Shown piece after piece: positions 2,091-48,434 of a DNA stretch of 64,000 bases. The notes below the pieces were generated by a model that did no database searches, was not told the origin of the DNA, and saw only the letters and a program-made list of their open reading frames with translations. Position numbers and translations under genes: made by a program. The stretch's first letter is position 1. Each line of letters starts with the position of its first letter. The stretch lies in the sequence record QB031382.1, one strand, 5' to 3'. This DNA is from a phage.

Positions 2091-3647
2091 GTGTCCAAAA
2101 AGAACCGCAGGAAACACAACGCCACAGCCAAAACTGTGAATAAATCTGGGAACGCAGGCGCACCAACTCATAATGTTCGTATGAGTGAGATCGGTTCTGG
2201 CGCACTTTCCCAAATTATGGCAGAGTCACAATCTATGATGGTTGAGGAATTGCGTTGGCCTCAGCTGATTGCAACAGTGGAGACTATGAAATGTGATTCC
2301 ACAGTTGCTACTGCCTTAGATACAAAATATGTTTTCATCACGAAAGCATTCAATGATTTTAAGATCCTTTATAATGTTAAAAGTGAAGACTCTAAGAAAG
2401 CTGCCGAGCTTATAGAGTATTCTTTGCGTAATTTGGCAAACCAACAAACTCTTCGAGATATTGCAAGAAGCGCAGCTACCTTTAACGAGTATGGTTTTTC
2501 ACTGTTTGAGAAAGTATACCGCAGAGAGAAAGAAGGTAAATACGCCGGGATGCTTCTTATTGATAAGATTGCGTTCCGACCACAGGCCAGTTTGTCCAGA
2601 TCAGAGCCGTTTGTCTTTGACAAGAATAGTAGAACACTGACAGGTATTTATCAATCACCTAATGCATTTCTAAACACGCAGAATGCACGCTGGGCTGGCC
2701 CTCTTGCTGCAATGCCTTCAAAAGGCTTTAATGAGCCTGAAATTTTCATCCCTGCTAAAAAGCTTATGCTCATGACCCTGTCAGGAACAGAATCTAACCC
2801 TGCAGGTGTGTCACCGATGATAGGTTGCTACAGATCTTTCCGTGAGAAAGTTCTGATTGAAAACCTTGAGGTTGTTGGCTGTTCCAAAGACCTTGGTGGT
2901 GTGCTTGAGCTGAAAATTCCTTCCAATATTCTGAACAAGGCCAGTATTGACCCGAATTCAATGGAAGGGAGAATGGTTGCAGATCTTATGCTTGACGCAG
3001 CAAATGCCCATAGCGGGGAGCAAAGTTTCTTTATACTTCCGTCTGATAGAGATAAGTCTGGTAAAGAGCTTTACTCCATGACCCTGAAGGGGGTTGACGG
3101 CATGGGTAAGCAGTATTCCACTAAAGATTTGATTGATGCCCGTAAGAAGGCGATTCTTGACCGTTTCGGTGCTGGCTTTATTAACCTCGGTAACGATAAC
3201 GTTGGGTCCTTCTCTCTGTCTGAGTCAAAACAATCTATCCATGGTCATTTTGTTCAGCGTGATATAGATATTATCACTGAGGCCTTCAATAAAGATCTTA
3301 TTCCACAGCTTCTGGCATTGAATGGTATCATCCTTGAAGATGATGATATGCCTAAACTGAAACCTGGTCTGATTGAAGAAGTGGACATGGAGAGCTTCTC
3401 CAAGTTTGTCCAGAGGATCGGTGCTGTAGGTTACTTGCCAAAAACTCCTGCAGTAATTAATAAGATTCTTGAAGTAGGCGGGTTTGATGAAAGATTTGAC
3501 GAAGACATGGATCAGGAAGAGCTGATGAAGCTCTTGGGCCAAGATATCAGCAGGGCTGGTGATGGTATGGCTGCAGGATCCACTGGCAACGGCACTTCTA
3601 AGATGTCATCAACCAGAGATAATTCCATATCTAACATGGAAAATTAA
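2091..3647 (+). CDS. Portal protein (putative)
   Basis: 518-aa ORF directly after terminase; GTG start with GAGGGG RBS. Called from position and size only. Confidence 0.5.
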   Translation: MSKKNRRKHNATAKTVNKSGNAGAPTHNVRMSEIGSGALSQIMAESQSMMVEELRWPQLIATVETMKCDSTVATALDTKYVFITKAFNDFKILYNVKSEDSKKAAELIEYSLRNLANQQTLRDIARSAATFNEYGFSLFEKVYRREKEGKYAGMLLIDKIAFRPQASLSRSEPFVFDKNSRTLTGIYQSPNAFLNTQNARWAGPLAAMPSKGFNEPEIFIPAKKLMLMTLSGTESNPAGVSPMIGCYRSFREKVLIENLEVVGCSKDLGGVLELKIPSNILNKASIDPNSMEGRMVADLMLDAANAHSGEQSFFILPSDRDKSGKELYSMTLKGVDGMGKQYSTKDLIDARKKAILDRFGAGFINLGNDNVGSFSLSESKQSIHGHFVQRDIDIITEAFNKDLIPQLLALNGIILEDDDMPKLKPGLIEEVDMESFSKFVQRIGAVGYLPKTPAVINKILEVGGFDERFDEDMDQEELMKLLGQDISRAGDGMAAGSTGNGTSKMSSTRDNSISNMEN

Positions 3648-33354: not shown

Positions 33355-34845
33355 GTGGCTAAGTATGGATTGACAGAGGCTGGTTTCGTTATACCAACCC
33401 TAAATGACCTAATCGTTGAAACTAAGCAAAGCCTGATCCGTGCTTTTGGCGAAAACTTCAACGTACAGAGTAACTCCGTTGCAGATAAGCTGACCACTAT
33501 CTTCAACGAGCGAGAGTATCAACTTATTCTTATGGCAGCATCTGTATACGCATCACAGACGCTGTATGGGGCAGAAGGTATTTACCTAGATGAGCTTCTT
33601 GGAAGACAGGGTATTTACCGAAGAGGCCGTTCTAAATCATCAGGTACCTGCCAGTTGACAATCAACACAACTGTGCCGTACAATATGATTTATGATTCCA
33701 AAACTTATACGCTGGACAGTGGCAACTTTGTTCTTAGCAACGATGTGCAAGTAGCAGGGAATCTTATTGCTCACAGAATAAATGCTCCAGACCTAAGGAT
33801 TGGGAAATACAACTTCCAAATTACCAACCAGACAGATGGAAGTATCAAAACAAAAAGCCTGGTTTTAACAGATAAGTCTCTGGACTCTTCTGATTTGCCA
33901 AGCTTTTACGGAGAGATTAAGCAATTCATTGTCGATAATACAACCCTGTTGAACGACGATTTGATTCAGATCGATATGTTGACAGGGACGTTGTGGATAG
34001 GGTACAATTCAAATCTTGATCAAGTTGGACTTAATAGCAGAGTAGATTTCAGAGTATCCCCGATTGTAGGGGAAAGAACTATCACACTGGATGTTATCGC
34101 TAACGAGGCTGGTGAGCTGTCAAGAGAAGCAGAAACCGTGACAACAATGTCGCCTACTCCTAGTGGATTTATCAAGCTTACCAACCGAGAAAGATTCAAT
34201 GAGGGCAGGGATGTTGAGAAGGACTCAGAGTATCGCTTAAGAGCTTCCAGCACTAAACAGTTAACATCTAAAGCTACCCGTCCTGCAATCCTTAGCGCTG
34301 TAAGCGAGGTGAAAGGTGTTGAGAAAGTAAGAGTGTTCTCTAACAACACCGATAAAACGGATGCGAAAGGTATACCACCTTATAAGTTTCAAGTGGTGGT
34401 GTTCGGTGGTGCAACAGAGGATATCTGTCAGGCGCTGTATCAAACCATAGCTTGCACAAACAGAACTTATGGGAATATCTTCTACGATATTACCACATCA
34501 GACGGTCAGACTGAAAGGATTTATTATTCTAAGGCAAACACTTACCGCCTGGATATGAGAATTACCTACTCAGGTGCTGCGCTTTCTACTACCGAAAAAG
34601 ATGCCATTACAGAGGCTCTTTTGCAGGTTGTTAACGGCTTGGATGTTGCCGATACGTTGTACAATATCCAATTGGTCGGTGCTGCATCTGCTGCTGTGTC
34701 GATAGGCAGATTTAATAGACTGGTAATTCAAGTTAAACCTGTGGGAGCTTCTGATGAAGCTTACACTACAAACGACATTGTTGCGAACATGACCGAGGTG
34801 TTTGACCTCGATGAAAGTAATATAACTTTCCAACAAACTATTTAA
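33355..34845 (+). CDS. Baseplate J-like protein (P2 gpJ / T4 gp6 family, putative)
   Basis: GTG start after GGAGGAG. AEGIYLDELLGRQGIYRRGRSKSSGTCQL resembles the Baseplate_J N-terminal signature. Confidence 0.45.
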   Translation: MAKYGLTEAGFVIPTLNDLIVETKQSLIRAFGENFNVQSNSVADKLTTIFNEREYQLILMAASVYASQTLYGAEGIYLDELLGRQGIYRRGRSKSSGTCQLTINTTVPYNMIYDSKTYTLDSGNFVLSNDVQVAGNLIAHRINAPDLRIGKYNFQITNQTDGSIKTKSLVLTDKSLDSSDLPSFYGEIKQFIVDNTTLLNDDLIQIDMLTGTLWIGYNSNLDQVGLNSRVDFRVSPIVGERTITLDVIANEAGELSREAETVTTMSPTPSGFIKLTNRERFNEGRDVEKDSEYRLRASSTKQLTSKATRPAILSAVSEVKGVEKVRVFSNNTDKTDAKGIPPYKFQVVVFGGATEDICQALYQTIACTNRTYGNIFYDITTSDGQTERIYYSKANTYRLDMRITYSGAALSTTEKDAITEALLQVVNGLDVADTLYNIQLVGAASAAVSIGRFNRLVIQVKPVGASDEAYTTNDIVANMTEVFDLDESNITFQQTI

Positions 34846-34856
34846 GGTGGCGGGAT

Positions 34857-35543
34857 ATGGCAGAGATTAAGTCGGATGTTAACCACATCCACACTCTGCC
34901 AGATTTTGTTCAGGGGGGTCTTGACTACCTGCCTGGAGATTTTCTGGCTGAGAAGGTTAATTTAGTCACATTCTTAACCGTGTACCTTAAAAGGTTGGAG
35001 GATGTTGATAAGATGCTGGTAGGTTTGGCTGAAGGAAGATTGCTTAACAATGCCAGCGGAAGATACCTTGACGAAGTTGGTAATCAACTTGGTATTCTTA
35101 GGAATGGACTTTCAGATGCTGATTTTCGTGCCACACTAATTATTCAGCAGGCCGCAGCATCAAGGGGCGGGACTCGCGAAGATGTCATCTCCACCTTGCG
35201 ACAATTGTTCGGAAGAGACAATTTCGATACGTGGAAAGGAGACAACTTCAGGCTTGACATAAATATTAGAAAAACTTGCTTTGACATATTGCAGTCTATT
35301 GATCAGATCTTAGACATGCTACCATTGCCTTGTCATTTGCGTCTTACAGAATCGCAAGGGCAAGCTTTTGGTTTTGAAGGGGACTCTACAGCTCTTGGCT
35401 TCGGATCGGTGTGGGAAGAAAACCAATTCGGAGTTGGTGGGCTGGCTACTTTGTTGTATGTTCCTGACGTAAGACCTGACTGGGACACCACAACCATTTA
35501 TTGTGAAAGTATTACAGTAAACGCAACTAGACAGGAGGGTTAA
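34857..35543 (+). CDS. Baseplate or tail protein (P2 gpI-like, putative)
   Basis: 228-aa ORF directly after the baseplate-J-like gene. Confidence 0.35.
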   Translation: MAEIKSDVNHIHTLPDFVQGGLDYLPGDFLAEKVNLVTFLTVYLKRLEDVDKMLVGLAEGRLLNNASGRYLDEVGNQLGILRNGLSDADFRATLIIQQAAASRGGTREDVISTLRQLFGRDNFDTWKGDNFRLDINIRKTCFDILQSIDQILDMLPLPCHLRLTESQGQAFGFEGDSTALGFGSVWEENQFGVGGLATLLYVPDVRPDWDTTTIYCESITVNATRQEG

Positions 35544-37615
35544 TGGCAACAGCTGTTTTTAAACCTTACCGTGATTACTCTACAATGGCTGCACAGTTTC
35601 ATTACCGAACAGTTCAGGATACTGCTGTTCCTGGGAGGGATTATAATCATGTTGAGGGCGATGTAACTATCCCGGTTGGGGCAACCAGTATCGAGATCCC
35701 TGTAGAAATTGTTGACAAATTGCCAAACAGGTTGCCAAGAAGCTTCTTTATGGAGTTTTCATCAAACTCACAAGGGGTTATGATTGGAACACAAAGAGCG
35801 AAATGTACAATAGTTTCAGATGAGAATCTTGACAGAATATCTTGGGATACCGTTGAGGAGAGAATGTTTCACCCAAGATATTGGGTTACAACCACACAGC
35901 AGACTGAAAGCACCTGTATTGTTGCGGATAATAACTGCTGTATTAACCGTTTAGTGTCAAGAACATATGGAGGCATGGCTGGGTGCATTTGGGAAACAGT
36001 TGACAAGTATGACCATTTCGGCATTGGATTTGATGATCACTACGAGATGAGAAACACCAAGCTTTGGTTCAGAATGTCAATAACCAATGCCAGCAACTTC
36101 TCCACCCCTGAAAAGATGATTATGACTGTAGACCTTGTTGATGGCACAATCATCTATGTTCCTTTAGCTCAATATGCTGTCAGCATCTCAGAGGATAAGA
36201 ATGTTGCAGAAATTCATATTGATTTCGAGGACTGCGTCGGGATGGACCAGAACAACAACATGATGGGTGTTGATCCTCGGCAGGTGAGAAGGATTTTAAT
36301 ACCACTTATGCCTAAAGATTGGGTAAGTAATAGCACAGACCCAAGAACGGAAAATGTAGAGTGCGAGTTGCGTCTAGATCTGCTTCAGCCGGACACAGGC
36401 TGGAAAATGATGCAACTTAACAATATCCAGGTGAAAGAGCACGACGTCGGGATCTGCACAGCATATGACGATATGTGGAACGTATCTCCTTTAAGGGTGT
36501 TGAGCAATATCAAGCGTCTAGGCTATACCGGAACCATAAACCATTATGTTGGTATGAGCCATTATTATGATTACACATGGTCCGGAACTCAATGGTCTAT
36601 AAACAGAACAGGAGCTCTAAACGCTGCAGCTTACAAATGGCACGATGATTTTATGTACAATGCCAAACGACATGACTTTGATGTTATGCAGTCTGTAAGC
36701 TTTGAGCTTTACAGTGATGCCTGTCCGTTGGAATGGACCCAAAGGGATTGGAACGATAACTATGCTAAAACAGGCTATACACCTTGTAGTTACCTCCTGT
36801 CTCCAACCATTGAAGAGGGTATGAATTTCCTTACTGCAGTATTTAAGAATTTTGCATCAGCCGCTATGAGGAACAGCCTGCCAGTGATCATGCAGATTGG
36901 TGAACCGTGGTGGTGGTTCAATACCGATACTCGTAAGCCTTGTATTTATGACTACCCTACAAAACAGGCGTTTTATGATGAAACTGGTGAATATGCCCTA
37001 GACATTGGGACTATTGACGATCCTAAAACTGGTGGTGTTTATGACAAGTATGTAGCATTTTGTCGTGGTAAGCTTGGCGCTCGTATTGCAGCTATTTCAA
37101 AGGCAATAAAAGCACACGCTGCATCGGCTCAGATGACAGCCTTGCTGTTTTTCCCAACCATTATGGAAACCGAGCTTACGCAAAAACTGAACCTTGCCGA
37201 CCAATATAAAAAGGAAGCAGGCGCTCTTGATTTCTTCTGCACTGAGTGCTACGATTGGGTGATGCAGGGTGGTATTGAAAAGGCAAAAGAGTCTGTAAAC
37301 ATACCTATCGTTAAGTTAGGTTGGCAACCGTCTGAAATACAATACCTTGCAGGGTTCGTTCCTAGTAAAGAGCTTGCTCCAGTATATGGCTACGACCCAA
37401 CCAGGAATTACCAAGAATTTTTATGGAGATGTATTTGCGGAAACATGGCAACCATAGAGTATAGATACCCTGAGGTAAAACAGTATGTGTGGGCATACCC
37501 GCAAGTAATGTCTGACAGCATCACTGTTACCGCCAGAGATTCTACCGTGCTTCATATGGGGCAGGTTGCTCTGAAAGGGTATGTAGAAGATGTTGTCCCG
37601 CCAGACTTCTCATAA
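35543..37615 (+). CDS. Tail fibre/spike protein with N-terminal Calx-beta-like module
   Basis: 690 aa. N-terminus (VPGRDYNHVEGDVTIPVGATSIEIPVEIVD) resembles a Calx-beta/Ig-like module; remainder Trp/Cys-rich. Confidence 0.4.
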   Translation: MATAVFKPYRDYSTMAAQFHYRTVQDTAVPGRDYNHVEGDVTIPVGATSIEIPVEIVDKLPNRLPRSFFMEFSSNSQGVMIGTQRAKCTIVSDENLDRISWDTVEERMFHPRYWVTTTQQTESTCIVADNNCCINRLVSRTYGGMAGCIWETVDKYDHFGIGFDDHYEMRNTKLWFRMSITNASNFSTPEKMIMTVDLVDGTIIYVPLAQYAVSISEDKNVAEIHIDFEDCVGMDQNNNMMGVDPRQVRRILIPLMPKDWVSNSTDPRTENVECELRLDLLQPDTGWKMMQLNNIQVKEHDVGICTAYDDMWNVSPLRVLSNIKRLGYTGTINHYVGMSHYYDYTWSGTQWSINRTGALNAAAYKWHDDFMYNAKRHDFDVMQSVSFELYSDACPLEWTQRDWNDNYAKTGYTPCSYLLSPTIEEGMNFLTAVFKNFASAAMRNSLPVIMQIGEPWWWFNTDTRKPCIYDYPTKQAFYDETGEYALDIGTIDDPKTGGVYDKYVAFCRGKLGARIAAISKAIKAHAASAQMTALLFFPTIMETELTQKLNLADQYKKEAGALDFFCTECYDWVMQGGIEKAKESVNIPIVKLGWQPSEIQYLAGFVPSKELAPVYGYDPTRNYQEFLWRCICGNMATIEYRYPEVKQYVWAYPQVMSDSITVTARDSTVLHMGQVALKGYVEDVVPPDFS

Positions 37616-37627
37616 TCAGGAGATAAA

Positions 37628-38668
37628 ATGTCAAAACCTAGTTTTCCATTAGAGATTTGGGCAGAGGAGGATCAGGTTCTGCCTAACACCCACAGACAGA
37701 ACAGGCTACGCCCGATTGATGATTTGTGGAGAAAAGGTTGGGATCTTGGTCAAAAGCCATCCTGTGAAGAACTTAACTATATTTTCAATATGCTCGGGAC
37801 TTGGGCAAAATACATTGCTGACGAGCAGATCCCCGCTCAAGAAGGCCGCTATCTGGTACGTGATAATAACTTGAGTGATCTTTTGAACATCCCTGTTGCC
37901 CGTAGAAACCTTGGAATTATTACTAAGGAAGAGGCAGACGCCAGGTATGTAAAAGTTACAGGTGATACAATGACAGGCCCATTGGGTTTGCAACGTATCA
38001 ACTTTAAAGCTGCCGAGACAGATAAGGCTTGGATAGAGACAACTATTGGCCCAGATAAGACAACTCTTGACTTTGGGTTAAGTGATAATATTGGAGCGTT
38101 CGATGATGGTGGCACATCTACAGTGGATGCGTTCCGTTGGAGATTCCAGCCAACTCAGCCGGACATTAACCCAGAGTTCACTTTAATGTACCTGAACGCA
38201 ATCACGGCTAATCGTGCGTTGTTGAAAGTGGTGGGCAATGTTGAAGTTGTTGATAACATGCGGTGTAATAACCTCACCATTAGTAGCACAGCAACATTCA
38301 CCAACTGCAATGTAGCCAGTCAGTTGACAGCTGGGTCAGTATATGTCAATGGCGGTGCAAGTTGTGATAGTATGGTTGTAAGAAGCCAGCATTGTGTTGT
38401 CGGTAACAGAAATGTGGTGCGCTCTGTGAATGGAGTGACGGCTAACGGCAACGGCGATGTAACGATCACCATCCTACAGACAGGTGTACAGGATATCAGA
38501 ATCGGTGCAAGACTTGTTGATGGTGTTTCTGAATCTCCAGTTCGCAACGGCTACGTTGTCACAGGTTGGCATTTTGGTGATAAAAAAGAGATGCGTGGTT
38601 CAACCTACTGGGCAGGGCCTTTACAAAAACTTGTAAATGGTCAATGGATCACTGTTAATTATGCGTAG
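37628..38668 (+). CDS. Tail fibre protein (paralog A)
   Basis: Shares PLEIWA..D, LKGWD, GDTMTG, LQRI, FRWRFQP, LNAITANRA, RNVVR.VNG and VNGQWIT with the 39684 product. Confidence 0.65.
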   Translation: MSKPSFPLEIWAEEDQVLPNTHRQNRLRPIDDLWRKGWDLGQKPSCEELNYIFNMLGTWAKYIADEQIPAQEGRYLVRDNNLSDLLNIPVARRNLGIITKEEADARYVKVTGDTMTGPLGLQRINFKAAETDKAWIETTIGPDKTTLDFGLSDNIGAFDDGGTSTVDAFRWRFQPTQPDINPEFTLMYLNAITANRALLKVVGNVEVVDNMRCNNLTISSTATFTNCNVASQLTAGSVYVNGGASCDSMVVRSQHCVVGNRNVVRSVNGVTANGNGDVTITILQTGVQDIRIGARLVDGVSESPVRNGYVVTGWHFGDKKEMRGSTYWAGPLQKLVNGQWITVNYA

Positions 38669-38682
38669 ATCGGAGGACTAGC

Positions 38683-39267
38683 ATGAAAATACTTCAAGAG
38701 TTTAAGCTTTACCAGCCGGGATCTGGCGAATACCACACCAACAAAGGTACCAAGGAGCTGACTCCTCAGGAGGTTGAGGATTACACGGCATACACTGGAT
38801 ATTTTTTACGTAATGATGATGGTGATTGGTATGTGCAATCACGAACACTACGACAAGAAAATCCAGGCTGTATCTTCCTACTTGTTGACGAGAAGGGTAT
38901 TCTTAAGACATCTACAGAAGAACCTGATGCCTTGTGGCCTGCTCCAGGTCTTCGTGTGGTTATCGCCAAAAAAGAAGAGGTACCAGAAAACATTATGCTC
39001 CACCACGACGCTTTGCGTTTAGTTGGTGATGAATTTGTCACAGACAATGAATTCTTTGTTCAACAGGCAGAGGGTGTCATAGAGACAGAACTTGCTTGGG
39101 CTACTGCTAGAATTGGTGCCTATCAAGACATGATTGACCTTGAATACGATCTCACTGATGACCAAAAACGCAACATCAGAGATTTGAAAATGTACAGGGT
39201 AAAACTTCTTGAAATAGATACATCTAAAGCCCCTGACATTTTCTTCCCGGAACGACCTACCCTCTAA
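38683..39267 (+). CDS. Tail fibre assembly chaperone (Tfa-like)
   Basis: C-terminus DQKRNIRDLKMYRVKLLEIDTSKAPDIFFPERP matches the conserved Tfa C-terminal motif. Directly downstream of a fibre gene. Confidence 0.55.
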   Translation: MKILQEFKLYQPGSGEYHTNKGTKELTPQEVEDYTAYTGYFLRNDDGDWYVQSRTLRQENPGCIFLLVDEKGILKTSTEEPDALWPAPGLRVVIAKKEEVPENIMLHHDALRLVGDEFVTDNEFFVQQAEGVIETELAWATARIGAYQDMIDLEYDLTDDQKRNIRDLKMYRVKLLEIDTSKAPDIFFPERPTL

Positions 39268-39278
39268 GAGGAGGTGTT

Positions 39279-39593
39279 GTGGAGTTGGATTTGGCGGCAT
39301 TGTACGGTATCTGCATGGGTACCGTTGTCCCGATCTGTGTATGGGCTTTCAACCAGTGGCACACCAAATGGAAAGGCATTTCCAAGAGGCTGGATGAGCT
39401 GGAGAAAGACCTCATTTTAGTGAAAAATAGCATGGTTACAAAAGATAGACTTGATTCCATTATTGAGACCCGGTTAAGTAAGCTAGAGGCCGATATTAAC
39501 GACCTTAAGCAAGATGTCAGGACAGATGTCTCCGGTATCAGAGCCGATGTGCAAAAGATTTTACACATGCTTGTAGAGCACAGTAAAAGGTAA
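39279..39593 (+). CDS. Small membrane protein with N-terminal TM helix and coiled coil (holin, spanin-like or other)
   Basis: GTG start after AAGAGGAGG. LAALYGICMGTVVPICVWAF hydrophobic helix, then heptad-like coiled coil. Followed by a terminator. Confidence 0.45.
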   Translation: MELDLAALYGICMGTVVPICVWAFNQWHTKWKGISKRLDELEKDLILVKNSMVTKDRLDSIIETRLSKLEADINDLKQDVRTDVSGIRADVQKILHMLVEHSKR

Positions 39594-39603
39594 ACAAAGG
39601 TCA

Positions 39604-39623
39604 GAACGGCAAGGATGCCGTTC
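39604..39623 (+). terminator. Intrinsic terminator overlapping next promoter
   Basis: GAACGGCA / AGGA / TGCCGTTC followed by TTGCATTTTGTT. Confidence 0.5.
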
Positions 39624-39652
39624 TTGCATTTTGTTCTCTAAAGTGTTAAAAT
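39624..39652 (+). promoter_or_regulatory. Sigma70-like promoter
   Basis: TTGCAT, 17-nt spacer, TGTTAAAAT. Confidence 0.45.
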
Positions 39653-39683
39653 AGTCCTTAAGGAATTTTCTCAGGAGAACGTG

Positions 39684-40727
39684 ATGACTAAACCAGTTAT
39701 CCCTCTTGATATTTGGGCCAATCAGGATGTTGTGCTTGAAAATACAGGAGAGTTGAACAAATCTCAACCGAACAAAGAAGAGAGATTGAAAGGTTGGGAT
39801 ATGACACAAAGGATAGCATGTGAAGTTGTTAACTTTGAACTCCACATGCTCTCTGCGTGGCTAAAGCATTTAACAGAAGATGTTGTCCCAGGATGGGATA
39901 ATAGATTCTTAAGGGTCACTAATAATCTGGCAGACGTTCCAGACAAAGCTGCTGCACGTCAAGTTCTCAATGTATACTCGCCTGAAGAAATGGATGACCT
40001 TTATGTTGACAAGGCTGGAGACACAATGATCCAGACTCAAACTTTAGGTCTTCAAAGAATCGAGTTTGCATCCGCGTCAACAGATAGTGCGGCGATATAC
40101 ACCACTATAACTCCAGACAAGACGATGATGGATTTCTGGATTATGGACAACATCGGTGGTGCTGACGGCACAGACCTTGATGATCCCTCTCACCAAATAG
40201 ACGGTTTCCGTTGGAGATTTCAACCTTCTGGTGGGCAGCCTGTGTTTTCGGCTATGAAGCTCAATGCTATAACTGCCAACCGTGCAAGACTGGCTATCCA
40301 AGGAAATCTTGAATGCAATGATGCAAAAAGCTCCTCTGCAAATGCTAATGCGGTAACGATACCTAGAGCCACTGTTAATGGACAACAATCCTGCGGCAGC
40401 GCTCAAATAGATGGAAGAGTAGATTGTAACGATAAAACCGCCAGGGGTCAATATGCAACAGTTGGTGGAAGAAACGTGGTCCGCAGGGTAAATGGTAGTA
40501 GCGCAGACAGTAGTGGTAACCTTACTATTCCTATGCCTAGTAGGGGTGTTGAAGATGTAAGGATAGCAAACCGTTTCAGAACCACCTACAGAGAATCAAG
40601 AGTATACCCTGGGCATGTAATGTGCTCCGGCAATTACGCCTATAAACACCCGTATCAGGGCGACTATTGGACTGGAGCTATTCAAAAATTTGTAAACGGT
40701 CAATGGATCACCATATCTTATGCTTAA
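39684..40727 (+). CDS. Tail fibre protein (paralog B)
   Basis: ATG 39684 after AGGAG (GTG 39681 alternative). Shares the motif set with paralog A but diverges in the central and C-terminal regions. Confidence 0.65.
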   Translation: MTKPVIPLDIWANQDVVLENTGELNKSQPNKEERLKGWDMTQRIACEVVNFELHMLSAWLKHLTEDVVPGWDNRFLRVTNNLADVPDKAAARQVLNVYSPEEMDDLYVDKAGDTMIQTQTLGLQRIEFASASTDSAAIYTTITPDKTMMDFWIMDNIGGADGTDLDDPSHQIDGFRWRFQPSGGQPVFSAMKLNAITANRARLAIQGNLECNDAKSSSANANAVTIPRATVNGQQSCGSAQIDGRVDCNDKTARGQYATVGGRNVVRRVNGSSADSSGNLTIPMPSRGVEDVRIANRFRTTYRESRVYPGHVMCSGNYAYKHPYQGDYWTGAIQKFVNGQWITISYA

Positions 40728-40736
40728 AGAGGGTAA

Positions 40737-41003
40737 ATGAAATTAACTCAGTTTTTATGGGGACTGGTTGCAGCATCTGATGACCCTACAAAAGTGTCCC
40801 AATCTAAGCTATGGTCAAACATAGGCATGGCAGTGATGACTGGGGTGTTTATTCATATGGGGTACAATGATACGCTTCCTGAATGGTATGCGTGGATATA
40901 CGCACCTTCAGTAGCCTGCCCCCAGCTTATTAGCAAATTCATCTCGCTCCGGTGGGGTTGCCAGCACCCTGACCACGTTAAAAACGAAGAGCAAAAAGCT
41001 TAA
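40737..41003 (+). CDS. Small membrane protein (holin-like candidate)
   Basis: 88 aa with two or three hydrophobic segments and a charged C-terminus (HPDHVKNEEQKA). Confidence 0.4.
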   Translation: MKLTQFLWGLVAASDDPTKVSQSKLWSNIGMAVMTGVFIHMGYNDTLPEWYAWIYAPSVACPQLISKFISLRWGCQHPDHVKNEEQKA

Positions 41004-41012
41004 GGAGAAATC

Positions 41013-42758
41013 ATGGCGCAAGACATGACAAGCTTCGAGCAGGCGGTAGATCAAGTAATTGTTGATTCTGAACGTTTGCACTTGATTGTCAACGGTAACG
41101 CTGTGGATGAAGTTGTCGTAGAGGATGGGACCACCATCCCTACGGTACGAAAAGCCATGCTTGACACCCTTTATTTTAAAACGCCACCAATCCCTTGGGC
41201 GTATGGTGCATCCACAACAGTTTTTAACCAGTTATATGAGTTTAAAGGGGACACAGGCCCTCAGTGGTGGTACGCTCCCGCAGCATCAAAATCTAACCCG
41301 GTTAGAATGCCAGCAGATCCTTCACAATCTCCGAACTGGAGATTATATACCGATTCTGCAGTAATGGCAAAATACTACGCAAAACTTAACAGCCCAAGAT
41401 TCGAAGGTGACCCGCGAGTACCTACACCTCCAATGGACGATAAGTCCGAGTCTATAGCAAACACAGAGTTTGTTGTGGACTATGTGGATAGCATATTTAA
41501 AGCCATGGAGGGGATGAAAGTTACTGTAGGGTCTTTGGTGGTAAAAGGTCTTACAGAACTTGCTAACACCATAGTTGGTGGCACCCTTACCTTACATGGG
41601 CCTGTTAATGGAGCGGATTCTACTGCACGCTTCAGGAACCTAATCCTTACTGCAAATACTTCTACACTGACTTTTGCGTGGAGCGATCCTAAGCATGCAG
41701 ACTGGAGAAGCACAGAGCTGCAACCTCATGAAGTAGCCACCCACAGAGTTATAGCTGACACTATAACTTCTGGGAAACCAGTGGCTAATAACAACGATGT
41801 GCATTTTGATGGTCTAGGTAATAACTTTTTTGACTACGTGTACATTCGTGGTAATGCCATGAAGGCAGCAACCGAACCGACATTGCAGGTCGATGGGACC
41901 ACCAGGGTTAAGAACCTTGAGGTGACAGGCACCGTTACAGGAATAACCTACTCTGTAGATGGCACCATGATCTACCCTAGCTATATTGAAAGCACAGGAG
42001 ATGCACTGATCAATGGAGATTTAGAGGTTGGCGGATCTATAGTCATTCGTGGCACAGCATCTGTCCAGAACATATCTTTAAATACTCTGAGGGTGAATGA
42101 GCGTGCCACTTTTGAAGGAGAAGGGCTTACAGCCAACAAAGGTGCAATTACCGAGCTGACAACCACTACTCTAACTGCAACAACTGCAAACTCTGAAAAC
42201 TGCAACGTTACCCGCAACTTGCAGGTAAATGGAGATGTTAGTTTAAACGCAGCAGGTACGGGAACCACTTATCTTCACAACCTTGGAATATCCGGCACGG
42301 TGACTGGGTGGCTGCCAGACTTCTCTAATGTTAACTTTGTCTGCAACGGCATTAACTCCAGTGGTAAGATAACCACCTCTCAAGAAATTGAGGCTGGTAA
42401 AACCATTACTGCCCCTACTTTCCACGCAGGAAAGGTAGATTTTGATTTAGAGGAGGTTGACGCATCTAGTGGGACATGGACACCTAACGGGCAGGCCAGC
42501 ATGTATGTTGTCCACGCGAAAGGGGATTTTACAATAGGCCAATGGCCTGGAACATCGGCTGAAGATAAACCTTACCCGTTTACTGCAATCATCTATGTCA
42601 TTCAAGATGCTGTAGGTCACAACGTGACTTTGCACGATAAGTATGCTATCCTGTCGGCAACACCTGTTATTAACAACAAGGCTAACAGTGTTACCTTGCT
42701 GCAATTAACGTATTGTGGTGTTGGTGATATCGTAGACGTAGTAATTGCACAACGTTAA
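41013..42758 (+). CDS. Tail fibre protein (putative)
   Basis: 581 aa, Thr/Gly/Asn/Val-rich beta-type composition; lies in the fibre cluster. Confidence 0.45.
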   Translation: MAQDMTSFEQAVDQVIVDSERLHLIVNGNAVDEVVVEDGTTIPTVRKAMLDTLYFKTPPIPWAYGASTTVFNQLYEFKGDTGPQWWYAPAASKSNPVRMPADPSQSPNWRLYTDSAVMAKYYAKLNSPRFEGDPRVPTPPMDDKSESIANTEFVVDYVDSIFKAMEGMKVTVGSLVVKGLTELANTIVGGTLTLHGPVNGADSTARFRNLILTANTSTLTFAWSDPKHADWRSTELQPHEVATHRVIADTITSGKPVANNNDVHFDGLGNNFFDYVYIRGNAMKAATEPTLQVDGTTRVKNLEVTGTVTGITYSVDGTMIYPSYIESTGDALINGDLEVGGSIVIRGTASVQNISLNTLRVNERATFEGEGLTANKGAITELTTTTLTATTANSENCNVTRNLQVNGDVSLNAAGTGTTYLHNLGISGTVTGWLPDFSNVNFVCNGINSSGKITTSQEIEAGKTITAPTFHAGKVDFDLEEVDASSGTWTPNGQASMYVVHAKGDFTIGQWPGTSAEDKPYPFTAIIYVIQDAVGHNVTLHDKYAILSATPVINNKANSVTLLQLTYCGVGDIVDVVIAQR

Positions 42759-42766
42759 TATATCTA

Positions 42767-42793
42767 ACCGCTCCTGACGGGGCGGTTTTCTTA
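42767..42793 (+). terminator. Intrinsic terminator
   Basis: ACCGCTCC / TGAC / GGGGCGGT followed by TTTCTT. Confidence 0.45.
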
Positions 42794-42806
42794 TCTGGAG
42801 AACACA

Positions 42807-45800
42807 ATGCTTCCAATCCCTTTGCTAAAACTTGGTCGTCATTTCCTCGATAAGAGGGGTGGAATTAAGGAACTTGCTGTTCTGTCATACCCAATAGACA
42901 ACAGTGATGGCACAAGCACTACAGTACCCTATGTAAATAGCTTAGCTATACTTTTTGATGATGGTCAACTTAATATCACGGGCTATAACAGGTTCGGAGA
43001 GTGCCGTACTGGGGATCTTGACACGATAAACTATCCCAACGAGGCTGCCTGGAACGTTGATCATGTGTGGAGAGCAGACCGTGCGTTTGTAATCCGAACT
43101 TTTGATAATCAGTTTTTCTACATCGGCTGCACTGCAGGGCTTATTGGGTCTGATGCCGCAGGCGGTAATGATGTTTGTGTAAGAGAGTGGACACCTCTTC
43201 CTGAACAGATCGTTAAAGGGTTGCACCTTGACACCCACCCAGAGCGCCTTATTGAGGTGATGGGTGGTATTAACAACACTGTCTGGGTTATTGCAGAGGC
43301 AGAAGGCACTGGTATACTGAACCTGTACGGGTCTGGTAACAACACCTACGGATCTTTGCATGTAGATAAAAATCAGCATGCAACCCCTGTAAAGATCGGT
43401 GAGACATCGGAAAATCCTGAAACAGGCCCTTGGAAAAACCCAAGCATTAACTGCGAGGTGCATGACAACTCTGTTATTTTCGGCGGTCCTAGAGGTTTCT
43501 GGATTGCTGGATACGATTTTCTGAGAAACAACAGTAGAAACGACCTTGTTTGGCCTCCTGTGCAGATTACTCGTAACGATTTGAGGGGCATTCCTGCAGA
43601 TGAGGAGTGGAAAGGGTTTATGTGCGGTCCTAACGGGGCAATAATTGCCACGCAGAGGATGCACACACCCAATGACCAGCAGCTTGTTAACGTATTCTAC
43701 GGGCAAAACGTCTGGGGAGATGACACATGGCGTTCCTTAAATATCACCTACACCCATGAGGTGATAATGGCTCGTGGATACGGCACAAGTGGCATTTTCT
43801 TCAATAATGGCACTAAGCAGTATCGTGGATTCTCTCGCAACTTGTGTAATGATATTGGCGCACAATCTGCAAACAATAGCCCTAGGGCCAATTTTATCCA
43901 CTATCAAGCTCTTGCCACAGCCAAATACGTTGAGCAACGCCTCCCAGTTAGCTGGACAGAGAGTGTTTATTTCCAAGGCATCCACAGGGAAGGTTTCTTA
44001 GGAACCTTTACTGTTGTTAATGGTAAACTTTGGTGGTCAGGCATCCCAAGGGGAAATTTTGCAGGATCTAATAACCTGTTTGGCGGCAGACTTAATAGCC
44101 AAGGGTTCACAGAGGTCCCCGAGAATTGGTATAAAAATGTCCCAGTAGACAGTTGGGGTGTTGAGGATATTTTCGACGTTAACGGTGTTAGCAGCGTTAG
44201 CAATATTTACATTGGTGATACGGTCAAGATGAAATTGAAGCCTCAGCCAGAAGGGGCCACGTTCATTATTGACAAGATTGAACTGGTAAATGCTGCAGGT
44301 ACGGTTGTTACAGATGCAAATTACCAATTCTCTACCAACTGGAACCACGGCGGGGCCAACGAAGTTATTGTTACCCAGTATAACAGGAATGTTAACAGGC
44401 GTGGCCTGTACTCTGTAAAAATAACCTATCATGACAAACATGGCACAGGAAGAACCCACACAACAAGGAATTTGAACTGGAACACTATCGTCCCAGCGTA
44501 TCCGTCTGATGGTAAATGGCATACTGTAGGTAGAAACAAACAGTTCCATGTTAACGACACTGTATACTTTGGACTAAATGCGGCCCAGCCTGCAGTAGAA
44601 GGGGATACATCGTATATGGTCAGACTCCATAGAATGGATGCTGGATCAGTAACTTATGATGTTACCCAAGAGATTTATAATCAGCGACGAAATACCTATG
44701 ATAACTTGGTGCAGACACAGGCCCTATGGGAGTTCAACCCAAACGGAAGGGGTGGTAAAATGTTGCAGGTCAACGAACAAAACGGGACATCGTTGACTGT
44801 TCACGAACACCCAAACCCTTGGCCTGATCCTGGGAAACCGAATTCAGGTGCTCGTACACTAAAAATTGTCAGCCATGACGTAGGATATTTCGGAATACGT
44901 TGGGAAGCCACAGTAAGATATGCCGACGGGACAACAAACAATATTGGGATTACCCTTGGCGGCACCAGTGAGGATAACTCACTGAAAATTGCCTACACTC
45001 CTAGAGGTATTTCTATTGATAATATGGATGTTGTTCGCAATGGTTACGGCGATGTGAATGTCAAAGTTACTCTTGGCGAGCACCTTGGTGGGGAAAGGAT
45101 TATCATGTATGCTTTTGATCATGATCCGCGCACCAATGGAACTTATGCAAATCAGGCATGGAGTTACCTAATAAATGCACCTGAGCCGAATACTAAAGAG
45201 TTCTACTATGGTATGAAGCGAGATGTGTGCAAGAAAACAGGAACACATGACTGGATTGCTATCTGCGTTAAAGATGAGCGCACAGCTTGGGATGAGCCTG
45301 TTAACAGATGGTTCATAGGTATTCCTACCAGAAGTGATAAGTATGTCGCAGAGTATATTGTATGCATGGGCGGTACCAACCTGAACATGTGTTGGAACGA
45401 AGATGTAAACAAATACTCTACTTATGACTATATGAGGGATTATGCTTGTAATCTGTGGTTTAGCCAAACTACAGGTTACCCTCCGCGTCAGGCGAGAGTA
45501 AATCCTGCAATCTTCACAGATACGCAGGTTTTCTTGACAAAACAGGCTAACGAGGTTCAGACCTTTAAGAACAAATACGACCCTAACAAGTGGTTCTACA
45601 ACTGTTCCGGAGCAATATTCTGGGGACCTGCTGAACTGCCTGATACAGGTTCTTGCTTAGGGGCTGCAACCTATGGCAGTGACTATATTATGGGTCAGGT
45701 CAAGAAGTACAAGATAATTCCTGGACCTGCAATTCTAGGTAATGCTGTTGACCCGTACATAAATTTCGCAGCTATACATGCTAATATGGATGGAGGGAGA

Positions 45801-48434
45801 TATCCGTTTGTTGTTCCGTTAAACTGGGGGTACAAACGTGTCGTGATGATTATTAAATGCGATCTGATCGGGAAGCAAGTTCTTGCAGAAAACGGAACCT
45901 CAACACATTTATTCGAGACTGCTCTGCACTACCAGTTTGCAGACTCACCATATGCAGGGGATAAAAGAATATCCGACACAGACTCTAAGCGCTGTAAGAA
46001 AGTTTTACTTGGAGCTGGGTGGTGGTGGTACGAGTTTGATTTGACAGATAAGTTCACAGATGATACCAAAACTCTCACAGGTATCCGTCTGAACCTTGGT
46101 GAGAACATGCATAAAAGTGTTTGTGATGGTACCTACGGTGACCCTACGGTATATCTAAAGTATGTTTCTCTTGAGCATCGCGAAGAGGATGTTTATGGTC
46201 CAAAACTGAGATTGTTTGGCTCATGGATTGCTAAAGACAGAGTAGGTATGGGTAAGAAGGTGAGAGGCTTCTTGATAGATGCAGGGACAGAAGACATGCT
46301 GGTTAATGCAGTATGGCCTGAATTACCAGGAACTCAGTGGGACAACTCTGCCAAATCTATAAACTGGTACAACATTCACAGAGCCATGTGGACCACCAAC
46401 TGCTACTTGTGGAGAGAGCTTAACGATCAGGCTTTCGGCTTCAGTAACGGTAGAAGGATGGCAATCATCTGCTGGACAACGCTGCAAAGATGTTATGACC
46501 ATGACTACGAGATTGGCGGTAGGGCATGGAAAGATATTAGGGATAGAATCATATACAATTTTGCAGATGATAATGGTGGCGGGGCGTATAACTTCGGCAC
46601 AAGCAGGCTCATCCATTTGAACGGATCCTTGGCCTACAAGAAAGAAGGCTACTCTGGGTCCATGATTGAGTGGGGTCTGGTGAAAGATGCTCGCGTATTG
46701 ATGGGTCAACAACTTGCTGCTGCAATAGGACCTAACGCAGTGCAGTCTGTCAAACCAGCGTGGTTCGATATCCCAATATGGTCACCGGGAACTGCGGCAA
46801 TCAACCCTACCACTGGGGATCTGGAAATCTCTTGGGAGGACTTAAAGCAGGTCGGTGGCTGGGATAAGACAGGCTACCAGGTGCAATGGTGGAGATCTGA
46901 CGGATCGTTAGCGGCTGATGAGTTTGTTAAGGACAATTTCTACACCATGTCCTCTGCAAAAGCACAGCAATTGTTTGGTCAGGCCACTCCGTCAACGATC
47001 ACCATGTCCATGTGCTGTAAAGACACCAGGACTGGAGCTCTGGGGCCAAGGGTTGCTAAAGTTTTCTCAGGTATTAAATGGAATCTCCCTGTTCAAGGTG
47101 TTTCATGGAAGCAAATAGGCGATAACAAGCTACTGGTTACTCCTGCCTGCCAGTTCGATGCAACTCTTGACGTTGATCCAGCTGTTGCAGCAAACTCAGC
47201 CAGAGCTTCTGACTTCTCTGTGTCTAACACTGCTATGGCAGATGTGAGAAAGATTGACACACTGAATGCCAGAATTACCTGTAAAAACACTTATGGCACA
47301 TTCCAAATCATCAACAACTTCACAGATACTGATTCTAAGGTGGTGAGGACAGCAAGCCAGACTATGCAGTTGGGTACTCTGGCATACTCTGCCCTGATCA
47401 CTGAACAGTCCTCCACTCTCCAGGGTGGTGGTGTTGGTAAGTTGATCACAACCCCTGTGTGGAAGCCAAACGAGTGGGTTGTGTTTGATTTGACTGTGGA
47501 CTTCTCCAGCGATAATAACTGGACATGGGTGAGGAATTGCTTGTCACAGCTGATGGGTGGCCCAAACTCCATTAGTGATAGCCATGACTCTACTGACCCG
47601 AGTGTGTTCCAGGTTGGTAAAACTCACCCAGAGACTGGGGCACTGTTGCCTGACAGGAAGTATGCTTTGGTTTGCATCTCCAACGGCAAGGCAGATGTAA
47701 CCTTCTCAGGGACACACACATATAACGGCACTTACAACTTCTCTAAAAAGTACAGCCTCAAGGCAGGTAACATTGTAGACGAGGTTGGTGCGTTGTATAA
47801 TCCAGGGAACGGGATAGGGATTGTGGGTGGTAAGCTGCAGATGCAGGAACCTTCTATTACCCCTTCCAATGTGCCAGGAATTAGGAAGACTTGGGAAAGT
47901 AGTGATACCAACATTGCAACAGTGGATGCTACCACAGGGCTGGTAACATTTAAAGCTACTGGGAATGTTACTATAAGGTTTGTAGTTACAGATGATGCAG
48001 GACGCAAAACGTCTTCAACATCGTTTACTGTCAAACAGATGGCACCACAGTGGAGAATGTGGATAGGTACAGCAACAAACGGGGCATATCCTAATCCGGC
48101 AGGGACTTCTGGTATGAAGACTTTCTCTACAAGCAAGCCGATGGAGTACGGCAGCGGTCCTAAGGTAGGGCAGATGGTGTACTTTGGTGCATATATTCCT
48201 GAAATTATAGGGCTTCCGAGAAGTCAGCTTCAGTTGCTGTTTGGGGCTGGTGTTGACGATCTTGCCACTTTCGGGTATAGCGACAACATCGAGGCTGCAA
48301 GGAGTTCAGGATGGGTAGGGTTCAGAATGGAGTCTGGAAAGGAAGGCAGGATTCTAGGGACAGCCTCTATAGGTGTTATGTTCCCTGGTGACCAGCAGTA
48401 TCGTCTGGGAGCCTACGCAACCTTTTCTCGTTAA
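42807..48434 (+). CDS. Giant tail fibre or host-recognition protein with C-terminal Ig-like (Big_2-like) domain
   Basis: 1875 aa, aromatic-rich. Residues encoded ~47855-48035 (TWESSDTNIATVDATTGLVTFKATGNVTIRFVVTDDAGRKTSSTSFTV) fit a Big_2-type Ig-like domain. Confidence 0.5.
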   Translation: MLPIPLLKLGRHFLDKRGGIKELAVLSYPIDNSDGTSTTVPYVNSLAILFDDGQLNITGYNRFGECRTGDLDTINYPNEAAWNVDHVWRADRAFVIRTFDNQFFYIGCTAGLIGSDAAGGNDVCVREWTPLPEQIVKGLHLDTHPERLIEVMGGINNTVWVIAEAEGTGILNLYGSGNNTYGSLHVDKNQHATPVKIGETSENPETGPWKNPSINCEVHDNSVIFGGPRGFWIAGYDFLRNNSRNDLVWPPVQITRNDLRGIPADEEWKGFMCGPNGAIIATQRMHTPNDQQLVNVFYGQNVWGDDTWRSLNITYTHEVIMARGYGTSGIFFNNGTKQYRGFSRNLCNDIGAQSANNSPRANFIHYQALATAKYVEQRLPVSWTESVYFQGIHREGFLGTFTVVNGKLWWSGIPRGNFAGSNNLFGGRLNSQGFTEVPENWYKNVPVDSWGVEDIFDVNGVSSVSNIYIGDTVKMKLKPQPEGATFIIDKIELVNAAGTVVTDANYQFSTNWNHGGANEVIVTQYNRNVNRRGLYSVKITYHDKHGTGRTHTTRNLNWNTIVPAYPSDGKWHTVGRNKQFHVNDTVYFGLNAAQPAVEGDTSYMVRLHRMDAGSVTYDVTQEIYNQRRNTYDNLVQTQALWEFNPNGRGGKMLQVNEQNGTSLTVHEHPNPWPDPGKPNSGARTLKIVSHDVGYFGIRWEATVRYADGTTNNIGITLGGTSEDNSLKIAYTPRGISIDNMDVVRNGYGDVNVKVTLGEHLGGERIIMYAFDHDPRTNGTYANQAWSYLINAPEPNTKEFYYGMKRDVCKKTGTHDWIAICVKDERTAWDEPVNRWFIGIPTRSDKYVAEYIVCMGGTNLNMCWNEDVNKYSTYDYMRDYACNLWFSQTTGYPPRQARVNPAIFTDTQVFLTKQANEVQTFKNKYDPNKWFYNCSGAIFWGPAELPDTGSCLGAATYGSDYIMGQVKKYKIIPGPAILGNAVDPYINFAAIHANMDGGRYPFVVPLNWGYKRVVMIIKCDLIGKQVLAENGTSTHLFETALHYQFADSPYAGDKRISDTDSKRCKKVLLGAGWWWYEFDLTDKFTDDTKTLTGIRLNLGENMHKSVCDGTYGDPTVYLKYVSLEHREEDVYGPKLRLFGSWIAKDRVGMGKKVRGFLIDAGTEDMLVNAVWPELPGTQWDNSAKSINWYNIHRAMWTTNCYLWRELNDQAFGFSNGRRMAIICWTTLQRCYDHDYEIGGRAWKDIRDRIIYNFADDNGGGAYNFGTSRLIHLNGSLAYKKEGYSGSMIEWGLVKDARVLMGQQLAAAIGPNAVQSVKPAWFDIPIWSPGTAAINPTTGDLEISWEDLKQVGGWDKTGYQVQWWRSDGSLAADEFVKDNFYTMSSAKAQQLFGQATPSTITMSMCCKDTRTGALGPRVAKVFSGIKWNLPVQGVSWKQIGDNKLLVTPACQFDATLDVDPAVAANSARASDFSVSNTAMADVRKIDTLNARITCKNTYGTFQIINNFTDTDSKVVRTASQTMQLGTLAYSALITEQSSTLQGGGVGKLITTPVWKPNEWVVFDLTVDFSSDNNWTWVRNCLSQLMGGPNSISDSHDSTDPSVFQVGKTHPETGALLPDRKYALVCISNGKADVTFSGTHTYNGTYNFSKKYSLKAGNIVDEVGALYNPGNGIGIVGGKLQMQEPSITPSNVPGIRKTWESSDTNIATVDATTGLVTFKATGNVTIRFVVTDDAGRKTSSTSFTVKQMAPQWRMWIGTATNGAYPNPAGTSGMKTFSTSKPMEYGSGPKVGQMVYFGAYIPEIIGLPRSQLQLLFGAGVDDLATFGYSDNIEAARSSGWVGFRMESGKEGRILGTASIGVMFPGDQQYRLGAYATFSR

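Follow-up and report, generated by a model that had tools for sequence, protein, structure and literature searches.

Two Homologous Short Tail Fibres and a Single Tfa-Like Chaperone in a Vequintavirus Tail Fibre Locus

The phage DNA analysed here (sequence record QB031382.1; the whole stretch of 64,000 nucleotides is called the window) contains the short-tail-fibre locus of a Vequintavirus, an rV5/FV3-like Escherichia coli myophage. This locus encodes two homologous fibres, referred to as fibre A and fibre B, and one Tfa-type chaperone. The explanation that best accounts for the locus as a whole, and which we consider very likely, is that both genes encode short tail fibres of the Mu S and phi92 gp147 kind that share the single Tfa, with roles predicted from those of their homologs. 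The fibre pair and its shared chaperone are already known for the genus (2013, 2021), and the observation is a correct rediscovery. To this we add the replacement of a 157-aa gene by fibre B, an asymmetry between the anchors of the two fibres, co-variation of their C-termini, an insertion in Tfa, and a predicted terminator and promoter belonging to B; the first four are handles on why the genus keeps two short fibres.

Homology of Fibres A and B

A preliminary description of the region, made from the sequence alone, had proposed two tail fibre genes of about 347 codons with shared N-terminal and internal motifs. The encoded proteins are 346 aa (A) and 347 aa (B) long and align from end to end by BLASTP, with 152 identities in 356 positions (43%, E 6e-94). 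Both are full-length members of PHROG 4465 (for A, aa 1-346, E 2.5e-170; for B, aa 2-348, E 1.1e-162; in each case on profile positions 1-342 of 342). The E value rejects chance similarity, while the full-length alignment rejects a likeness limited to generic fibre motifs, which was the outcome that the preliminary description had named as contrary to its proposal. The similarity thus goes far beyond both, and common ancestry of A and B is certain.

Identity is unevenly distributed along the pair. The most conserved stretch is central (aa ~105-200, 54-67% in 30-aa windows), and sliding-window identity is 27-37% at aa 16-90, 27-35% at aa 205-245, and 30-40% at aa 276-325. The last ~22 aa are nearly identical and conform to YWxGxxQKxVNGQWITxxYA. 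Two sub-terminal tip segments, aa 205-245 and aa 290-325, are only ~30% identical between A and B in the window's lineage. The difference in central and C-terminal regions that had been proposed therefore holds for aa 205-245 and 276-325, but not for most of the central region or for the extreme C-terminus.

The 5.8 kb around the locus share 98.5% DNA identity with Escherichia phage EPFV3-03/2025 and 98.1% with FV3. They match 118 phage records, nearly all of them from Vequintavirus (rV5-like coliphages), and 111 of these cover at least 80% of the region. Gene order is collinear with that in FV3, rV5, Murica, and the BASEL phages; in the rV5 gene table, the equivalents are gp33 (A), gp32 (Tfa), gp31 (104-aa protein), gp30 (B), and gp29 (88-aa protein), followed by gp28 and gp27. 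In annotations of the BASEL phages, the 194-aa protein is listed as "tail fiber chaperone", and the name "short tail fiber protein" is used for both A and B. In rV5, gp30, gp32, and gp33 were detected in the phage proteome (Kropinski et al. 2013). The features of the locus are as follows (ORF, open reading frame).

37628-38668, + strand, fibre A, 346 aa, ortholog of rV5 gp33 (ORF, phrog_4465)
38683-39267, + strand, Tfa, 194 aa, ortholog of rV5 gp32 (PF02413, phrog_136)
39279-39593, + strand, 104-aa protein, ortholog of rV5 gp31 (phrog_5345, hydropathy)
39603-39633, + strand, terminator-like hairpin (scan, fold, cross-lineage comparison)
39629-39666, + strand, predicted late promoter of fibre B, rV5 "P030" (match to rV5 Table S4)
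39684-40727, + strand, fibre B, 347 aa from ATG, ortholog of rV5 gp30 (ORF, phrog_4465)
40737-41003, + strand, 88-aa protein, ortholog of rV5 gp29 (phrog_1322)
41013-42758, + strand, lateral tail fibre, 581 aa, ortholog of rV5 gp28 (phrog_4549, E 4e-249; BASEL annotation)
42766-42797, + strand, intrinsic terminator, rV5 t028 (scan; same sequence as rV5 t028)
42807-48434, + strand, immunoglobulin (Ig)-like fibre, 1875 aa (ORF)

An in-frame GTG at 39681 would extend fibre B to 348 aa; all public annotations use the ATG at 39684.

The same genes in the same order, with 95-99% protein identity, are found in rV5/V5, FV3, LL12, and the BASEL phages DrSchubert, EduardKellenberger, EmilHeitz, and MaxTheCat. 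There is no essential difference between the window and these rV5-group phages, and it represents another member of the genus, closest to the FV3 type.

Fibre Anatomy and Structural Relatives

The fibres consist of an N-terminal joint of ~90 aa, a central shaft, and a C-terminal tip like that of Mu S (aa ~287-346 in A). Their identity as tail fibres is borne out at both ends, as an hmmsearch with the family profile finds similarity to the phiTE short tail fibre at its N-terminus (PDB 9CUY, E 3.4e-34) and to Mu S at its C-terminus (E 2.8e-13). In phmmer searches of the PDB, aa 1-108 of A match the phiTE fibre (9cuy_c) with E 1.4e-19, while aa 2-84 of B do so with E 1.6e-8 only. Residues 3-92 of the phiTE fibre form a globular joint that binds wedge protein 1. 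The homology to phiTE (PDB 9CUY/9MJN) is confined to the N-terminal ~80-108 aa, with the joint of B matching much more weakly than that of A; the phiTE fibre itself differs in being 554 aa long, with a coiled coil and Ig-like domains, and belongs to a flagellotropic phage. Residues ~70-117 contain an "NLxD...ARxNLG" repeat that is also present in the solved short tail fibre gp92 (9zd7).

At the other end, aa 287-343 of A match residues 441-501 of Mu S (5yvq_A, phmmer E 3.5e-6). B alone gave no phmmer match to the Mu S tip in the PDB search; its weaker assignment to this tip type comes from a Foldseek match to 5yvq (E 5.5e-6) and from the terminal motif that it keeps. Structure prediction, one of the checks that had been suggested for the tips, was informative only to this extent. 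AlphaFold2 monomers built from a 32-sequence alignment were poor (mean predicted local distance difference test score, pLDDT, 63.5 for A and 58.8 for B; predicted TM-score, pTM, 0.33 and 0.28), as expected for intertwined trimers. The only significant Foldseek match for either model was the Mu fibre-chaperone complex 5yvq (E 3e-7 for A), with a TM-score of just 0.15.

Unrelated ~53-kb phages, including Salmonella phage birk and Escherichia phage BEC1-17, have fibre tips with 57-59% identity to that of A (38486-38659, aa 287-344). These are Rosemountvirus-like phages, and the likeness points to a mobile tip module; fibre B is without such matches. One record among these matches is named "Listeria phage", a host label that looks doubtful.

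Among known systems, the closest counterpart outside the subfamily is the phi92 gp147 type of fibre (fibre III), found in Justusliebigvirus and Phapecoctavirus. This fibre occupies the same position, after two wedge genes, and is followed by Tfa and by a small protein with a transmembrane segment and a coiled coil. Its N- and C-termini are homologous, but the central part between them has been replaced (only ~38% of A is covered by tblastn, with 48% identity), and phi92-type phages have a single copy of the short fibre, unlike the window. An alignment with LL12 gp29 spans almost all of phi92 gp147. As identified by electron cryo-microscopy (cryo-EM), phi92 gp147 is the downward-pointing fibre III, which rearranges on contraction and has been proposed to mediate irreversible adsorption. 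Maffei et al. described these fibres as homologous to the one locus present in phi92-like phages, and ultimately to Mu GpS/GpU, and found the outer core of lipopolysaccharide (LPS) to be needed by all of these phages.

The resemblance to Mu (GpS with GpU, also known as TfaMu; PDB 5YVQ and 9KI1) comprises ~60 homologous aa at the C-terminus and a PF02413 Tfa gene immediately downstream, and a Tfa probably folds the tip and stays bound. Mu S, however, is 504 aa long with an unrelated N-terminal part, and the S/U and S'/U' pairs of Mu are switched by DNA inversion, in contrast to the two fixed paralogs of the window, both expressed and with one chaperone between them. No sign of a Mu-like invertible switch was seen, as both fibres are on the + strand, are separately promoted, and keep their order in more than 110 genomes; an invertase was not otherwise looked for.

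The T4 gp12 fibre has an analogous role in LPS-core binding and irreversible adsorption, but the likeness is one of function and not of family, and gp12 uses the gp57A chaperone instead of Tfa. The T4 gp12 chain was not recovered in the PDB by phmmer (E<=1), by the family profile (E<=0.01), or among significant Foldseek matches. Kropinski et al. (2013) reported HHpred matches of gp30 and gp33 to T4 gp12. On the sequence comparisons made here, "short tail fibre" is a functional label combined with homology of the Mu S/phi92 type, and not a demonstrated membership in the gp12 family.

Origin of Fibre B

The sister genera Avunavirus (Av-05), Seunavirus (PVP-SE1, GAP31, and NINP13076), and Mydovirus preserve the same order of fibre, Tfa, 104-aa, 88-aa, and ~581-aa genes, but contain one fibre only, which is 46-51% identical to A. 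A gene of 157 codons occurs where the window has B with its hairpin and promoter. The full single-fibre order, seen in Av-05, GAP31, NINP13076, and Mydovirus NDO71, is fibre, Tfa, 104-aa protein, 157-aa polytopic membrane protein, 88-aa protein, and ~581-aa fibre. In NDO71 the middle gene is annotated as shorter (123 aa). Its positions in four of the compared loci are given below.

~157-aa polytopic membrane gene: 6449-6922 in L003 (Av-05); 6497-6970 in L004; 6461-6934 in L005; 6450-6821 in L006

The 157-aa protein was found in 107 phage records, from single-fibre Vequintavirinae and phiTE-like phages, with no Vequintavirus among the matches listed; only 16 Escherichia-phage records match, compared with more than 110 Vequintavirus genomes in the collection. 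Together with the synteny of the single-fibre loci, this distribution places fibre B exactly in the slot of the 157-aa gene. No remnant of that gene was detected in the window by tblastn (best E 0.044, elsewhere in the window). The two-fibre arrangement recurs in the same order in two further lineages, L011 (A 88% and B 77% identical to those of the window) and the metagenome contig L008 (A 73% and the B-like fibre 46%).

Duplication had been proposed as the source of the pair. The shared ancestry over the whole length agrees with this proposal, but unstable neighbour-joining trees do not demonstrate a tandem event. In a first tree, A and B were sisters with 78% bootstrap support, the stem of B being long (0.50, compared with 0.18); with more taxa, support fell to 32%. 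When the protein was divided, A+B support was 0% for aa 1-100, 64% for aa 101-285, and 18% for the tip, and over the first 100 aa both A and B have closer relatives among the single-copy fibres than in one another. In-situ tandem duplication of A into B is thus plausible from these comparisons. Alternatively, B may be an already diverged allele acquired, with its own promoter, by recombination from a related phage, displacing the 157-aa gene. The low sisterhood in the fuller sampling and in the first 100 aa fits an acquisition, as does the greater identity of A to fibres from single-copy genera (46-51%) than to B (43-44%). B also sits in a replaced slot with its own terminator and promoter cassette, and fibre modules are clearly mosaic, the tip of A being 58% identical to those of ~53-kb Rosemountvirus-like phages. 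However, no phage in a collection of 50,697 records carries a B-type fibre as its only one, and outside Vequintavirus the best matches of B reach no more than ~42% identity over part of the length, which does not exceed its identity to A. Moreover, A and B are nearest relatives across central aa 101-285 (distance 0.90, compared with 1.19 from B to single-copy fibres), and the high support and long B stem of the earlier tree are consistent with acceleration after duplication. On this evidence we regard acquisition as a possible but rather unlikely origin of B.

Predicted Transcription Units

The operon is compact apart from an 87-nt gap in front of B (39594-39680), the only one of any size, which holds both a hairpin and a promoter motif. 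The hairpin (39603-39624) has a 9-bp stem and a 4-nt loop and is followed by a T-rich tail, TTGCATTTTGT, to 39633; in phage EduardKellenberger its stem carries a compensatory change from C-G to A-T. This predicted hairpin probably closes a unit consisting of fibre A, Tfa, and the 104-aa gene. The promoter core, TGTTAAAATA, lies at 39644-39653 in a sequence that is the same as rV5 P030 except for a one-base indel, and P030 was listed as a late promoter by Kropinski et al. (rV5 Table S4). The layout of hairpin plus motif recurs in L011 and L008, where T-G-(T/C)-TAAAATA is kept upstream of B, while in Av-05 the corresponding genes overlap and there is no gap. Downstream, a terminator with the same sequence as rV5 t028, CCGCTCCTGACGGGGCGGTTTTCTTAT, ends a unit of fibre B, the 88-aa gene, and the gene for the 581-aa lateral fibre, which is the last gene of the predicted unit starting at the fibre B promoter. 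Based on the hairpin, promoter, and t028, A and B are probably in separate late transcription units.

Asymmetry and Selection

The two fibres were compared at 79 alignment columns, each with a conservation of 90% or more across 26 further members of the family. Within the N-terminal joint (aa 4-62), 13 of 29 columns deviate from the consensus in B and one does so in A (Fisher p 4e-4), while in the rest of the protein the departures are similar in number (6 of 50 in B, 8 of 50 in A). B-type fibres have an N-terminal signature, ...LNKxQPxK[ED]...GWDxxQRxAxExxNFE..., that is kept in three lineages only 46-77% identical overall; the A-specific N-terminus has RPIDDLW.... The asymmetry and the retained signature indicate that B is defined by its anchor end at least as much as by its tip. 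Divergence is accordingly not limited to the receptor-binding end, as the preliminary description had supposed; the clearest asymmetry is in the joint by which B attaches to the baseplate. A is the more conservative of the two and is like the sole fibre of the sister genera.

A dN/dS analysis (ratio of nonsynonymous to synonymous substitution rates) along the A/B pair, which had also been suggested, is uninformative, as synonymous sites are saturated (proportion of synonymous differences, pS, 0.86 overall and 0.71-1.05 in every 40-codon window). We therefore compared orthologs within the genus. Between the window and phage EduardKellenberger (dS ~0.28-0.30), dN/dS is 0.029 for A and 0.058 for B, similar to the values for neighbouring genes (0 to 0.03). 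With 14 amino-acid changes compared with 6 in A, B evolves about twice as fast. Both copies are kept by strong purifying selection. A is present with at least 95% identity in 116 phage records and B with at least 90% identity in 117, always with a second place in the record, and both genes are intact and conserved in all genus members examined. A pseudogenised copy is rejected by the purifying selection on both genes and by the virion proteomics of rV5.

A Single Tfa

The 194-aa protein encoded directly after A matches PF02413 (Caudo_TAP; 45.5 bits with a cut-off of 22.1, aa 122-192 on profile positions 61-130) and phrog_136 (E 2e-36). It consists of a variable N-domain (aa 1 to ~120) and a C-domain (aa 122-192) that is more conserved in every comparison. 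Tfa proteins bind their fibre with the N-domain and trimerise through the conserved C-domain. As had been described, the chaperone gene follows A alone: the gene directly downstream of B encodes the 88-aa protein, which has no Tfa similarity, and tblastn found no second Tfa in the 64-kb window. A Mu-like C-terminus and a likely need for Tfa have been noted for the short fibres of BASEL Vequintavirinae (RBPseg, PMC12143355).

The extreme C-termini of the fibres co-vary by lineage, with ...VNYA and ...ISYA in the window and L011, ...VQTL in both fibres of L008, and ...NLN in the single-fibre genera. This co-variation fits one shared chaperone within each lineage and suggests that the single Tfa serves both fibres. 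In L008 (fibres at 116-1156 and 2190-3254), A and B share 80-90% identity over their last ~60 aa, where third-codon identity is raised (0.47-0.57), compared with 48% for the whole proteins, which suggests either past gene conversion or joint constraint on the tips. The Tfa of L008 is only 44% identical to that of the window.

The Tfa proteins of the three two-fibre lineages contain an insertion of ~21-26 aa at aa ~14-35 ("...KELTPQEVEDY..."), in the fibre-binding N-domain. It is lacking in the single-fibre genera. Like the C-termini and the L008 tips, this insertion is relevant to the sharing of one Tfa that we propose.

Proposed Function of the Fibre Pair

We propose the following model, in which the properties of both proteins are predicted from their homologs. 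A and B would each form homotrimeric, downward-pointing short fibres. Lateral fibres would first engage surface glycans, with the 690-aa fibre that carries domains of the non-contractile tail sheath protein (NCTSP) binding the N4 glycan receptor (NGR). Next, the short fibres would attach to the LPS outer core and relay this to the wedge of the baseplate, so triggering sheath contraction. A single Tfa would fold both tips through its variable N-domain and stay attached. A would keep the ancestral joint to the wedge. That of B is remodelled, with changes at many otherwise conserved positions, so that B probably docks at another baseplate site or partner. If so, both sets of fibres could coexist on one particle. 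The tips, which differ in loops at aa ~205-245 and ~290-325, may prefer different variants of the LPS core. A more specific form of this model, which we offer tentatively and consider doubtful at present, is that B is a neofunctionalised anchor variant occupying a second baseplate or fibre site, giving two sets of short fibres with one Tfa serving both by means of its N-domain insertion. If true, the locus would be a natural example of one chaperone with two diverged clients, and of baseplate valency grown by gene replacement.

Several observations weigh against two functionally distinct short fibres. Low-resolution cryo-EM of Bas49 and Bas54 distinguished one class of short-fibre density and only three fibre types near the baseplate (PMC12143355), and a single density class does not readily suggest two sets of short fibres. 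In the view of Maffei et al., the terminal receptor is the same for all Vequintavirinae, and allelic variation is not notable in either paralog, which fits redundancy as well as it fits divergence of specificity. The low confidence of the monomer models means that no comparison of tip structures is possible. That B uses the single Tfa is something we infer, the hairpin and promoter are predictions at the level of motifs, and the distinction between the two fibres is a proposal.

In view of these points, the second copy may instead add avidity, dosage, or robustness with no new specificity, an explanation that we consider a serious contender, if somewhat short of an even chance. The tested Vequintavirinae, whether they have one short fibre or two, all fail on waaC and waaG mutants (Maffei et al.), and LL12 requires WaaC, WaaF, and WaaG. 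The low allelic variation, the high conservation of both genes within the genus, and the nearly alike tips of A and B in L008 also agree with redundancy. It does not, however, account for the tip segments at aa 205-245 and 290-325, whose difference is kept under purifying selection, and it leaves the broad host range across core types unexplained. Kropinski et al. (2013), who reported 42.3% identity between the fibres of the rV5 pair, proposed that they recognise "two chemotypes of LPS".

The two proteins could also co-assemble into heterotrimers, so that one type of fibre is made from two genes. Equal length, a conserved shaft, a common C-terminal motif, and the presence of one chaperone would be compatible with such an assembly, and so would the one class of short-fibre density. 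We nevertheless find it highly improbable, as Mu S, the phiTE short tail fibre, and phi92 gp147 are homotrimers in the cited structures, 13 of 29 conserved positions are different between the N-terminal joints, which intertwine within a trimer, and the genes are in separate predicted transcription units.

The model of two short fibres with one Tfa has a practical side, as phages of the rV5 type are often considered for therapy and for biocontrol of E. coli O157 and other pathogenic E. coli. The breadth of their host range has been attributed to an unusually rich set of fibres, and the binding target and site of each short fibre matter for host-range engineering.

Small Flanking Proteins

The 104-aa protein has one strong N-terminal hydrophobic or transmembrane segment (aa 5-23) followed by a coiled-coil-like remainder. 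It matches phrog_5345 (E 1e-48), is 32% identical to its ortholog in Av-05, and is annotated in rV5 as a membrane protein with one transmembrane domain. Its gene is directly 3' of Tfa across the Vequintavirinae, including the single-fibre genera.

In the same place, Phapecoctavirus ukendt encodes a 111-aa "lipoprotein" with a similar N-terminal hydrophobic stretch and a charged, heptad-like remainder.

The 88-aa protein after B matches phrog_1322 (E 2.7e-32, "membrane protein" in PHROGs and RefSeq) and is 51% identical to an 87-aa protein of Av-05. The preliminary description had presented it as a small membrane protein that follows B in place of a chaperone. Such a small protein is indeed encoded there, but it is weakly hydrophobic: no 19-aa window reaches a mean Kyte-Doolittle value of 1.6, and the rV5 annotation lists no transmembrane domain, so that "membrane protein" is an annotation label and not a demonstrated property. 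Nor is it a B-specific substitute for a chaperone, as its presence in genera with a single fibre shows it to be ancestral. With the search terms used, no per-protein line giving mass spectrometry evidence for gp29 or gp31 was retrieved from the rV5 supplementary tables.

We also considered whether the 88-aa or 104-aa protein could be a non-Tfa chaperone of B's own, or a membrane-associated assembly factor. Both genes flank B and are co-transcribed with fibre genes in the predicted units. This role seems very unlikely to us, given that both proteins occur at the same positions in genera without fibre B, that neither resembles a chaperone family in Pfam or PHROGs, and that B keeps the C-terminal motif common to A and to the Tfa-using fibres of the Mu S type.

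Neighbouring Genes

The fibre genes lie 3' of two wedge genes, within the baseplate and fibre module of a Vequintavirus genome. The genes 5' of fibre A encode a Baseplate_J wedge protein (33355-34845), a 228-aa baseplate protein (34857-35543), and the 690-aa NCTSP-domain protein. According to Maffei et al., the genes that vary within the genus are those for the three largest lateral fibres, up to gp27.

The 690-aa protein (35543-37615) contains a Calx-beta domain as well as N-terminal and TIM-barrel NCTSP domains of the N4 gp65 kind (E 1.4e-79), and corresponds to the Vequintavirus lateral fibre reported to bind NGR. Counterparts of the 1875-aa fibre in related phages are annotated as Ig-like or as bearing intimin domains.

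The records that match the locus include 16 to 21 named "Campylobacter phage", with Campylobacter jejuni as host, among GenBank accessions MG065639-MG065682. Those among the matches listed are ~95% identical to the locus at the DNA level, and their host labels look doubtful.

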